Notes: generated by a model not told the origin, from the sequence alone. A stretch of DNA of 64,000 nt from Escherichia coli (GCF_041886205.1 NZ_CP169029.1), one strand, 5' to 3'; positions 18,855 to 39,416 are shown, counted from the first letter of the stretch. A program made the numbers and translations.

Positions 18855-18860
18855 TCACGA

Positions 18861-18886
18861 GGGCGCATTTGCGCCCTTTATTTTTC
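18861..18886 (+). terminator. Intrinsic terminator after yceB
   Basis: GGGCGC-ATTT-GCGCCC hairpin followed by TTTATTTTT. Confidence 0.65.
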
Positions 18887-18892
18887 GTGCAA

Positions 18893-18908
18893 AGGAAAAC
18901 GTTTCCGC
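18893..18908 (+). promoter_or_regulatory. PurR operator upstream of pyrC
   Basis: AGGAAAACGTTTCCGC, palindromic AAAACGTTT core characteristic of PurR boxes. Confidence 0.55.
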
Positions 18909-18959
18909 TTATCCTTTGTGTCCGGCAAAAACATCCCTTCAGCCGGAGCATAGAGATTA

Positions 18960-20006
18960 ATGACTGCACCATCCCAGGTATTAAAGATCCGCCGCCCAGA
19001 CGACTGGCACCTTCACCTCCGCGATGGCGACATGTTAAAAACTGTCGTGCCGTATACCAGCGAAATTTATGGACGGGCTATCGTAATGCCCAATCTGGCT
19101 CCGCCCGTGACCACCGTTGAGGCTGCCGTGGCGTATCGCCAACGTATTCTTGACGCCGTACCTGCCGGGCACGACTTCACCCCATTGATGACCTGTTATT
19201 TAACAGATTCGCTGGATCCTAATGAGCTGGAGCGCGGATTTAACGAAGGCGTGTTCACCGCTGCAAAACTTTACCCGGCAAACGCAACCACTAACTCCAG
19301 CCACGGCGTGACGTCGATTGACGCAATCATGCCGGTACTTGAGCGCATGGAAAAAATCGGTATGCCGCTACTGGTGCATGGTGAAGTGACACATGCAGAT
19401 ATCGACATTTTTGATCGTGAAGCGCGCTTTATAGAAAGCGTGATGGAACCGCTGCGCCAGCGCCTGACTGCACTGAAAGTCGTTTTTGAACACATCACCA
19501 CCAAAGACGCAGCCGACTATGTCCGTGACGGAAATGAACGACTGGCTGCTACCATCACTCCGCAACATCTGATGTTTAACCGCAACCATATGCTGGTTGG
19601 TGGCGTGCGTCCGCACCTGTATTGTCTACCCATCCTCAAACGCAATATTCACCAACAGGCACTGCGTGAACTGGTCGCCAGCGGTTTTAATCGAGTATTC
19701 CTCGGTACGGATTCTGCGCCACATGCACGTCATCGCAAAGAGAGCACCTGCGGCTGCGCGGGCTGCTTCAACGCCCCAACCGCGCTGGGAAGTTACGCCA
19801 CCGTCTTTGAAGAGATGAATGCTCTGCAGCACTTTGAAGCATTCTGTTCTGTAAACGGCCCGCAGTTCTATGGGTTACCGGTCAACGACACATTCATCGA
19901 ACTGGTACGTGAAGAGCAACAGGTTGCTGAAAGCATCGCACTGACTGATGACACCCTGGTGCCATTCCTCGCCGGGGAAACGGTACGCTGGTCCGTTAAA
20001 CAATAA
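18960..20006 (+). CDS. pyrC: Dihydroorotase
   Basis: 348-aa ORF starting [26 protein letters not shown] (metal-binding HxH). Confidence 0.95.
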
Positions 20007-24987: not shown

Positions 24988-25908
24988 ATGACGAATCTAC
25001 CCAAGTTCTCCACCGCACTGCTTCATCCGCGTTATTGGTTAACCTGGTTGGGTATTGGCGTACTTTGGTTAGTCGTGCAATTGCCCTACCCGGTTATCTA
25101 CCGCCTCGGTTGTGGATTAGGAAAACTGGCGTTACGTTTTATGAAACGACGCGCAAAAATTGTGCATCGCAACCTGGAACTGTGCTTCCCGGAAATGAGC
25201 GAACAAGAACGCCGTAAAATGGTGGTGAAGAATTTCGAATCCGTTGGCATGGGCCTGATGGAAACCGGCATGGCGTGGTTCTGGCCGGACCGCCGAATCG
25301 CCCGCTGGACGGAAGTGATCGGCATGGAACACATTCGTGACGTGCAGGCGCAAAAACGCGGCATCCTGTTAGTTGGCATCCATTTTCTGACACTGGAGCT
25401 GGGCGCGCGGCAGTTTGGTATGCAGGAACCGGGGATTGGCGTTTACCGCCCGAACGATAATCCACTGATTGACTGGCTACAAACCTGGGGCCGTTTGCGC
25501 TCAAATAAATCGATGCTCGACCGCAAAGATTTAAAAGGCATGATTAAAGCCCTGAAAAAAGGCGAAGTGGTCTGGTACGCACCGGATCATGATTACGGCC
25601 CGCGCTCAAGCGTTTTCGTCCCGTTATTTGCCGTTGAGCAGGCTGCGACCACGACCGGAACCTGGATGCTGGCACGGATGTCCGGCGCATGTCTGGTGCC
25701 CTTCGTTCCACGCCGTAAGCCAGATGGCAAAGGGTATCAATTGATTATGCTGCCGCCAGAGTGTTCTCCGCCACTGGATGATGCCGAAACTACCGCCGCG
25801 TGGATGAACAAAGTGGTCGAAAAATGCATCATGATGGCACCAGAGCAGTATATGTGGTTACACCGTCGCTTTAAAACACGCCCGGAAGGCGTTCCTTCAC
25901 GCTATTAA
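24988..25908 (+). CDS. lpxL: Lipid A biosynthesis lauroyltransferase
   Basis: Track ORF trimmed to [17 protein letters not shown] (306 aa); ATG checked at 24988. Confidence 0.9.
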
Positions 25909-35844: not shown

Positions 35845-36608
<764 letters not shown>

Positions 36609-36666
36609 ATTCTTCTCCCGAAAAAAAACAGGGCTTGCGCCCTGTTTCTGTAATACAAATGATGTA

Positions 36667-37122
36667 TTAGTACTGATGAGCGGTCGCGTTGTTACCAAAG
36701 CCAACCTGAGTCACGTTGACGGAGGAGTTAGATGCAGTCTGGTCAACTGCAGCACCGTTGCCACCACCGAACTGTTTAACAGTCATTTCAGAATTTTTGC
36801 CGTTCCACTGATCAAGAGTAGCGCTGTTACCGAAGCCACGTTGGGTCAGATCGATTGAGCTGTCATCCGAGCCCTGACCAACATCTGCACCATTACCGCC
36901 GCCATGCTGGGTAATAGTCAAGTCAGAGTTACGGGCATCAGTTTGCAGAGCAAGTGCAGAGTTACCGCCACCGTACTGGTAAATGTTCAGCTCTGAATTT
37001 GGGCCGCTATTATTACCGCCACCACCGTGGTTACCGCCGCCGCCGTACTGAGGAACAACACCTGCCAGAGCGCTACCGGAGAATACGATTGCTGCAATTG
37101 CTGCTACTTTTAAAAGTTTCAT
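36667..37122 (-). CDS. csgA: Major curlin subunit
   Basis: 151-aa ORF with signal peptide and repeated S-x5-Q-x-G-x-G-N-x-A units. Confidence 0.95.
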   Translation of the reverse strand: MKLLKVAAIAAIVFSGSALAGVVPQYGGGGNHGGGGNNSGPNSELNIYQYGGGNSALALQTDARNSDLTITQHGGGNGADVGQGSDDSSIDLTQRGFGNSATLDQWNGKNSEMTVKQFGGGNGAAVDQTASNSSVNVTQVGFGNNATAHQY

Positions 37123-37162
37123 GTAAAACCCCCATCGGATTGATTTAAAAGTCGAATGGAAA

Positions 37163-37618
37163 TTAACGTTGTGTCACGCGAATAGCCATTTGCGACTGTC
37201 TCTGCACTACAATTGCCGTTTTTTGAGTACCATACTGTGTAATATTTGCTTTATTACCAGAACCTTTCTGGATAATCATCGCAGTATTACCATAAGCACC
37301 TTGCGAAATACTGGCATCGTTTGCACTGCCCGCCTGATCAATATATGCAAGGTTATAATCTCCTGTCTGGTCAATCTTTGCCCGATTGCTACTACCTTCT
37401 TGCGCAACAACCGCCAAAAGTTTTGAGCCTCCCTGCCGTAACTGAGCACTATTATTCGTCCCAGCTTGACCAATTATGGCTGCCTGATTAAATGAAGACT
37501 TACTCAATTCATTTACCGCGAAGTTATATTCTGAATTAGCTAAATCATAACCTGCTGCGGCTGCAATCCCAGGCGCACCCAGTATTGTTAACATCATAAA
37601 TAACAATTTGTTTTTCAT
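37163..37618 (-). CDS. csgB: Minor curlin nucleator subunit
   Basis: Track ORF trimmed to MKNKLLFMMLTILG (151 aa); start codon checked. Confidence 0.9.
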   Translation of the reverse strand: MKNKLLFMMLTILGAPGIAAAAGYDLANSEYNFAVNELSKSSFNQAAIIGQAGTNNSAQLRQGGSKLLAVVAQEGSSNRAKIDQTGDYNLAYIDQAGSANDASISQGAYGNTAMIIQKGSGNKANITQYGTQKTAIVVQRQSQMAIRVTQR

Positions 37619-38371
37619 GTTGTCACCCTGGACCTGGTCGTACATTTAAGAAATTAAATCATTTCAACTTGGTTGTTAACGCAACCTGTATTTTGTTAAC
37701 GCTGCGTTACGATGGAAAGTATGTCTGCGGAAATATTTTTAATAACTCACCCGCGCGTTGTATTTTTCTTTTTTTGTTCATACCAAAGTATTAAAACCCA
37801 CGTAAATACGCTGTTATCTACGCAAAAAATATTTTGTTTTCTTTTAAATCTCCGTTTTCCGCTATCAAAAATCACCAGACAGTCATTTTTCTTGCCCGTC
37901 GCTGATTGCTGCGATATGTCTTGCGCACAAGCCGTGACAAACCTCGTCTTTTTGCAGTAAAAAATTGTCCACGGAGGTGCGGAGAAAAAACAAGAACGTT
38001 TTACGTGACGAAAGGACTACACCGAAATATTTTTTATATGTATTATTAGTAAGTTATCACCATTTGTATGATTTTTTAAAATTGTGCAATAAAAACCAAA
38101 TGTACAACTTTTCTATCATTTCTAAACTTAATAAAACCTTAAGATTAACATTTTAATATAACGAGTTACATTTAGTTACATGTTTAACACTTGATTTAAG
38201 ATTTGTAATGGCTAGATTGAAATCAGATGTAATCCATTAGTTTTATATTTTACCCATTTAGGGCTGATTTATTACTACACACAGCAGTGCAACATCTGTC
38301 AGTACTTCTGGTGCTTCTATTTTAGAGGCAGCTGTCAGGTGTGCGATCAATAAAAAAAGCGGGGTTTCATC
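37619..38371. promoter_or_regulatory. csgBAC / csgDEFG divergent intergenic regulatory region incl. csgD 5' UTR
   Basis: ~750-bp visibly AT-rich intergenic between divergent csgB and csgD; individual sites not resolved. Confidence 0.7.
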
Positions 38372-39022
<651 letters not shown>

Positions 39023-39026
39023 AGCC

Positions 39027-39416
39027 ATGAAACGTTATTTACGCTGGATTGTGGCGGCAGAATTTCTGTTCGCCGCAGGGAATCTTCACGCCGTTGAGGT
39101 AGAAGTCCCGGGATTGTTAACTGACCATACTGTTTCATCTATTGGCCATGATTTTTACCGAGCCTTTAGTGATAAATGGGAAAGTGACTATACGGGTAAC
39201 TTAACGATTAATGAAAGGCCCAGTGCACGATGGGGAAGCTGGATCACTATAACGGTCAATCAGGACGTTATTTTCCAGACTTTTTTATTTCCGTTGAAAA
39301 GAGACTTCGAGAAAACTGTCGTCTTTGCACTGATTCAAACTGAAGAAGCACTAAATCGTCGCCAGATAAATCAGGCGTTATTAAGTACGGGCGATTTGGC
39401 GCATGATGAATTCTAA
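39027..39416 (+). CDS. csgE: Curli secretion specificity factor
   Basis: 129-aa ORF with signal peptide. Confidence 0.9.

Follow-up and report, generated by a model that had tools for sequence, protein, structure and literature searches.

We found that positions 18,893 to 18,962 of the window, which is the whole 64,000-nucleotide stretch of Escherichia coli DNA analysed here, are the native E. coli pyrC promoter, operator, and leader with two independent, well-characterised controls, a reading to which we assign a probability of about 0.93. It is carried by the anatomy of the sequence, its identity with K-12, a match to an Rfam family, the energetics of start-dependent folding, and conservation across species, all of which were shown in this analysis. 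The first-pass annotation had taken the locus to be the pyrC control region with both regulatory elements, and the K-12 identity together with the Rfam PyrC leader match bears this out. The control of pyrC seen here is real, had been rightly interpreted, and is textbook knowledge that adds nothing new on E. coli biology. The main value of the case is as a positive control: the classic case of "repression without a repressor", where the CTP/GTP ratio is sensed through the start site that RNA polymerase chooses and the outcome is translational, was recovered at the right coordinates from sequence alone. Comparative by-products for specialists in pyrimidine regulation and curators of RF02372 are the wider range of the module, the lineage-restricted sub-consensus operator, and the Photorhabdus stem.

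The DNA around pyrC is E. coli chromosome with the gene order mdtH-grxB-yceB-pyrC-dinI-bssS-solA, which is also the order in K-12 MG1655, where the orientation is reversed and pyrC is likewise flanked by yceB and dinI. The regulated gene is the pyrC coding sequence (18960..20006, plus strand), taken from the ORF list, annotated by RefSeq in 5,425 E. coli genomes and corresponding to K-12 b1062; the ATG proposed at 18960 is present and opens this ORF of 348 amino acids, annotated as dihydroorotase in RefSeq. A 1-kb query spanning the control region finds a match in 5,425 of 5,426 complete E. coli genomes, and the genes annotated beneath it are yceB and pyrC. The 83 bases from 18880 to 18962 are identical in 5,359 of 5,424 complete genomes; the surrounding, mostly coding 1 kb reaches at least 99% identity in only 1,664. 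Alignment with K-12 MG1655 shows zero differences over 18873-18962, and the identity runs past the ATG; the sole mismatch in 200 aligned bases is a T/C difference at 18872, which falls in the terminator loop of the upstream gene yceB. Compared with the K-12 promoter and leader, the control region is base-identical, the -10 hexamer, the C/G start cluster, the stem, the Shine-Dalgarno (SD) sequence, and the PUR box all being the same. The K-12 promoter-leader is said to have been worked out by Wilson, Turnbough and co-workers and by Choi & Zalkin in 1990, the latter reportedly providing the original DNase footprint of the operator.

All features of the control region lie on the plus strand, except the operator, to which no strand was assigned. 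The upstream border is the Rho-independent terminator of yceB (18859..18886, stem-loop 18859-18878), found by a terminator scan, with the stem GAGGGCGC/GCGCCCTT followed by a T-run. This T-run is the A/T-rich stretch 5' of the pyrC promoter, and it directly abuts the -35-like hexamer GTGCAA (18887..18892). The hexamer was assigned from its spacing, 17 bp upstream of the -10, and matches TTGACA at three of six positions; a (G/A)TGCA(A/T) motif is kept at this position, at the same 17-bp distance, in 29 of 33 Enterobacterales leaders. The -10 hexamer TATCCT (18910..18915) corresponds to positions 1-6 of the Rfam PyrC_leader model and has four of six consensus matches, and its TAT..T is invariant across the 33 species. 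A sigma-70 consensus promoter scan with a threshold of 9 of 12 hexamer matches called no promoter at pyrC, which has 7 of 12; the missing call is explained by hexamers that match at just three and four of six positions and is not evidence against the promoter.

Six bases separate the -10 hexamer from the alternative start cluster C-C-G-G (18922..18925), which puts C18922 at 7 nt and G18924 at 9 nt past the hexamer; we take these to be the start sites named C7 and G9. C7-C8 is conserved in 32 of the 33 Enterobacterales and C7-C8-G9 in 31. The placement of the cluster at positions 7-10 after the -10 fits the published description (PMC6524683). At a high CTP/GTP ratio, pyrC transcription begins with CTP, 6-7 nt past the Pribnow box, and the two extra C's of these transcripts give a 5' hairpin that sequesters the ribosome-binding site; at a low ratio, the start is at G and the mRNA is translated (PMC6524683; PMC4491880). 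The long untranslated transcript also decays faster (PMC6524683). The earlier proposal that nucleotide-sensitive start selection decides whether the hairpin forms agrees with these reviews, which state the mechanism, and with the C/G cluster found 7-9 nt past the -10. The starts actually used here and their sensitivity to nucleotides are taken from this literature or deduced.

The hairpin consists of the 5' arm CCGGC (18922..18926), a 15-nt A/C/U-rich loop AAAAACAUCCCUUCA (18927..18941) whose length and sequence vary between genera, and the 3' arm GCCGG (18942..18946). Both arms are supported by folding, the Rfam model, and cross-species pairing, and the 5' arm also by a pentamer test. The 3' arm shares the first two bases of the SD sequence GGAG (18945..18948), which stands 11 nt before the ATG and whose GGA is invariant in 33 species. 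CCGGC, GCCGG, and GGAG are all located where the first-pass annotation had placed them. Its claim that the hairpin occludes the ribosome-binding site is supported, with one refinement: the stem does overlap GGAG and the fold does depend on the start, and the stem covers the GG only and not the whole SD. The leader up to the ATG folds at -8.1 kcal/mol with 5 bp when begun at C18922 versus -3.0 kcal/mol with 3 bp when begun at G18924, and folding of the 5' UTR gives the complete hairpin only on transcripts begun at the two C's, as had been expected. In ensemble free energy, the cost of opening GGAG is 2.5-5.1 kcal/mol greater on C-start than on G-start transcripts. This comparison was made with seven 3' boundaries, from 18962 to 19080, and the excess held for every one of them.

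Compared with shuffled sequences, the hairpin is unremarkable (z = -1.7 to -0.5), and 9 of 200 shuffles fold equally well. Since the stem has only 5 bp, these z-scores are uninformative, and we therefore relied on the start-site comparison and on an enumeration of pentamers, in which each of the 1,024 possibilities was put in place of the five bases at the 5' end of the C-start transcript. The native CCGGC ranks first of the 1,024 for SD occlusion, at 6.27 kcal/mol (mean 2.78, standard deviation 0.34). In silico, either G18924C or G18925A abolishes the occlusion, and the double mutant G18924C+C18944G restores it. It is thus specificity and conservation that carry the case for the hairpin, rather than its stability. 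A reading of the hairpin as a terminator or attenuator was rejected, there being no U-tract after the stem.

Liu & Turnbough in 1994 reportedly identified the functional SD of pyrC as the distal GGAG and not the proximal GAGA. The comparative data agree with this, because GGA is invariant in the 33 species and GAGA is peculiar to Escherichia. These four inserted bases (18953-18956) are absent from Citrobacter and from the Rfam consensus, and they account for the long spacing between SD and ATG in Escherichia. The 11 nt found in E. coli and E. albertii is the longest spacing among the 33 Enterobacterales; it is 6-10 nt in every other one whose ATG was confirmed.

The pyrC loci used in these comparisons were fetched by protein similarity, with one genome per species, so that the sampling was independent of the leader; from 34 upstream regions, 33 Enterobacterales leaders were analysed, the window included and Arsenophonus excluded. 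Between the stem arms lie 15 to 82 nt of unalignable sequence, and yet GCCGGAG recurs before the ATG. The C's of the GCC that lies 5' of GGAG are more than 90% conserved. Over the 33 species, 93.1% of the cells for the five stem pairs hold a standard pair, versus 9.7-44.8% for slid controls, in which the partner was shifted by 1-3 columns on the alignment of the joined arms. The hairpin, on whose conservation the earlier reading had been made to depend, is therefore kept across genera, with 93% of its stem cells paired. A start at C7 adds more than 1 kcal/mol to the cost of opening the SD, relative to a start at G9, in 27 of the 33 leaders (mean 2.0); this start-dependent effect is absent in six, namely those of Rahnella, two Yersinia, Acerihabitans, Hafnia, and an insect symbiont of the genus Pantoea. 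At stem pair 4, 21 distinct sequences have G-C, the two Yersinia have C-G through a compensatory swap, and five leaders with the same 5' change are mismatched (C·C). Support from covariation is thin, amounting to one compensatory event, because the arms are near-invariant and each has a second job, as the initiation site and as the SD, respectively.

In the case of Photorhabdus (L025, L026), GCCGG directly follows GGAG (UGGAGCCGG), and its pairing with the CCGGC at the 5' terminus is retained. This rearranged stem is located about 60 nt upstream of pyrC, and on the pairing model the Photorhabdus leader is predicted to be a rearranged version of the same start-site switch. One of the two Photorhabdus loci (L025) also carries three tRNA genes upstream of pyrC.

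The Rfam family RF02372 ("PyrC leader", release 15) is a curated cis-regulatory family, and its consensus structure does not differ from the 5-bp CCGGC/GCCGG stem found here. It matches 18910..18959 on the plus strand over model positions 1-50 of 50, scoring 68.7 bits where the gathering score is 50; the match is immediately 5' of pyrC on the same strand, ending one base before the ATG. Compared with the window, the RF02372 consensus has the shorter Citrobacter/Salmonella-type spacer between SD and AUG, to which Escherichia adds the four bases GAGA. Among 20 loci tested, only Escherichia and Citrobacter reached the gathering score. Eight other Enterobacteriaceae that were scanned gave 34-45 bits, under the gathering score, and no match was returned in Pseudescherichia (L007) or in the Enterobacterales outside Enterobacteriaceae that were scanned (L016, L017, L018, L020, L022, L025, L027, L028, L031). 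The -10/C7-C8-G9/GCCGGAG layout is present in the loci that the model misses, and RF02372 as curated under-detects long-loop variants of the pyrC leader.

The PurR operator (PUR box) AGGAAAACGTTTCCGC occupies 18893..18908, at -29 to -14 relative to C18922, and fills the 17-bp spacer between GTGCAA and TATCCT; the palindrome is present exactly where it had been reported. It is self-complementary at 10 of 16 positions and agrees with the PurR consensus at 14 of 16 (two mismatches among the 15 specified bases), and it is the only site in the 64 kb with two mismatches or fewer. We scored the window with a PurR weight matrix built from 28 ChIP-supported sites. These are the 28 motif instances within the ChIP-chip PurR regions of Cho et al. 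(2011), among which pyrC is not listed (PMC3159470), so the matrix is independent of the pyrC box. With 17.03 bits, the PUR box is the best match on either strand of the window, and it outscores 11 of the 28 training sites under leave-one-out scoring. Judged by sequence, it is the only credible PurR site at the pyrC promoter, so that the other condition set against the earlier reading, a palindrome outside the documented PurR site, likewise gives no refutation. Its location is one also seen elsewhere, the motif lying between the -10 and the -35 in 14 of 32 PurR-regulated promoters (44%; PMC3159470).

That pyrC is repressed by PurR, as the first-pass annotation held, is stated in the literature as direct repression (PMC3159470; PMC6245113), and pyrC is among the PurR sites characterised in vitro and by mutation (PMC3159470; PMC6245113); PurR binding and the size of its effect are adopted here from such work. 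The repression is described as weak, comparable to that of pyrD and carAB P1 and far below that of the pur genes (PMC6245113). Position 13 of the PUR box is C, where 27 of the 28 ChIP-supported sites have G. This deviation fits the weak repression reported, and from it the pyrC operator is probably a weak site. A literature search with the operator string returned only a purB site of H. influenzae and unrelated papers, and a search for Fur input at pyrC found nothing relevant. The window contains a weaker match to the PurR matrix at 25604-25619 (minus strand, 15.1 bits) and two adjoining 16-mers at 38981-39012 (minus strand, 14.8 and 14.2 bits), the latter antisense at the 3' end of csgD and just before the csgE ATG at 39027. 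These lower-scoring sites are probably chance matches, and the ChIP-chip list contains no csg region.

Across the family Enterobacteriaceae, the PUR box is found at -29..-14 relative to C7 in all 17 loci sampled (the window, L002-L015, L030, and L036), with 11.3-19.2 bits, and the sequence flanking it upstream diverges while its position stays fixed. Position 13 is never G in these 17 boxes but is C or A. At the same -29..-14 position, scores are negative in all sampled Yersiniaceae, Erwiniaceae, Pectobacteriaceae, Hafniaceae, and Morganellaceae. Outside the order, the pyrC upstream region of Vibrio hannami (L079) has a PurR-type box GCGTAAACGTTTGCGT of 21.2 bits directly before TATACT, at -91 from the pyrC match, and that of Photobacterium piscicola (L060) has one further upstream, CAGCAAACGATTGCTT, of 15.2 bits at -119 from the pyrC match. 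The CCGG start cluster is not in either of these two upstream regions. Since their phyletic ranges differ, the operator and the start-site switch are separable modules. The fuller picture, in which the switch with its hairpin is an old, order-wide feature with lineage-specific rebuilds, the PurR operator is a separable add-on, and the operator is deliberately sub-consensus, is put forward tentatively, as its parts taken jointly have a somewhat less than even chance of all being right. If position 13 is indeed held sub-consensus, the effect would be that purines repress this pyrimidine gene only weakly.

Two other explanations of these elements need to be weighed against the native-control reading. 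The PUR-box-like palindrome might be no working operator in vivo, being a chance or relic match or the site of another LacI-family protein, with purine effects that are indirect. Genome-wide ChIP-chip, which recovered 13 of 15 PurR regions known beforehand, missed PurR at pyrC, and its authors left the miss unexplained (PMC3159470); position 13 is C where G is near-invariant; and about 0.18 sites that score like the PUR box are expected per random 64 kb. However, for any given promoter the expectation is only about 1e-4, and no site in the window scores higher than the palindrome, which is above 11 of 28 real sites and placed exactly in the promoter spacer. In Vibrio, a stronger box takes up this position ahead of the -10, and in-vitro binding and mutational evidence for direct repression has been cited (PMC3159470; PMC6245113). 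A weak operator with an effect of about 2-fold would be expected to escape a ChIP-chip threshold, and the deviation at position 13 may account for the miss. A non-functional box is unlikely because its position is conserved in 17 of 17 relatives with diverging flanks, and we consider it highly improbable.

The other explanation concerns the hairpin. Its arms might be conserved for separate roles, CCGG for initiation and GCCGGAG as an extended ribosome-binding site, so that the pairing is incidental and control is exerted through transcription or mRNA stability. Almost invariant arms with very little covariation are what this would predict, the stem is weak (5 bp, -8.1 kcal/mol) and unexceptional against shuffles, six leaders are without the start-dependent fold effect, and the long transcript is also degraded faster (PMC6524683). 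However, the GCC before GGAG is unneeded for pairing with 16S rRNA, yet its C's are conserved at more than 90%, and translational control through the hairpin has been reported (PMC6524683; PMC4491880). Together with this conserved GCC, the first rank of CCGGC among 1,024 pentamers in SD occlusion, the Yersinia swap of pair 4 from G-C to C-G, and the Photorhabdus rearrangement, in which the 3' arm now lies beyond GGAG without losing its pairing to the 5' end, make an incidental hairpin unlikely, and we give it a slighter chance still than a non-working box. Compensatory double mutants of the stem are reported to restore the pyrimidine regulation of a pyrC-lacZ translational fusion.

With a working operator and a regulatory hairpin as the preferred reading, the two controls would act as follows. 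PurR carrying hypoxanthine or guanine would compete with RNA polymerase at 18893-18908 and would thereby lower pyrC transcription modestly; the effect of PurR on pyrC is put at about 2-fold in the literature. Pyrimidine control would need no repressor, as RNA polymerase itself would start at C18922 or G18924. At a high CTP/GTP ratio, the start would be made with CTP, and the 5' CCGGC of the transcript would pair with GCCGG at 18942-18946, burying the first half of GGAG and blocking translation of pyrC. At low CTP, the start would shift to G; with the two C's missing, just a 3-bp remnant could form, the SD would stay open, and dihydroorotase would be made.

This arrangement has several known relatives. 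The leaders of Salmonella pyrC and of E. coli and Salmonella pyrD, which are separate loci outside the window, are described as following the same logic, with extra 5' C's on CTP-initiated transcripts completing an SD-sequestering hairpin (PMC6524683). In pyrD there is also a PUR box, CGGAAAACGTTTGCGT (PMC3159470 Table 1), but it has the consensus G at position 13 instead of the C of pyrC. The operators of the pur regulon, such as those of purT, purHD, and cvpA-purF, resemble the pyrC box in being 16-bp imperfect palindromes with a central CG within the promoter. Compared with them, the pyrC box is sub-consensus at position 13, its repression is much weaker (PMC6245113), and it was unrecovered by ChIP-chip (PMC3159470). 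In the UTP-sensitive reiterative transcription and attenuation of pyrBI, pyrE, and others, RNA polymerase likewise senses NTP pools at or near initiation without a repressor protein (PMC6524683; PMC4491880), but there the means are slippage of the transcript on T/A tracts, or else a terminator hairpin with coupling to a leader peptide, whereas pyrC has no U-tract after its hairpin, no leader peptide, and a translational output.

Elsewhere in the window, the annotation of the best-matching strain, VE-T9, had suggested an IS1 truncating csgD. This was rejected for the window, which is non-collinear with that strain past 35992 and is without IS1. Where VE-T9 has IS1 and the truncated csgD, the window has about 2.5 kb of other sequence (35993-38503); from its position between ymdB and csgD, this segment presumably holds the intact 5' end of csgD and the csgBAC region.
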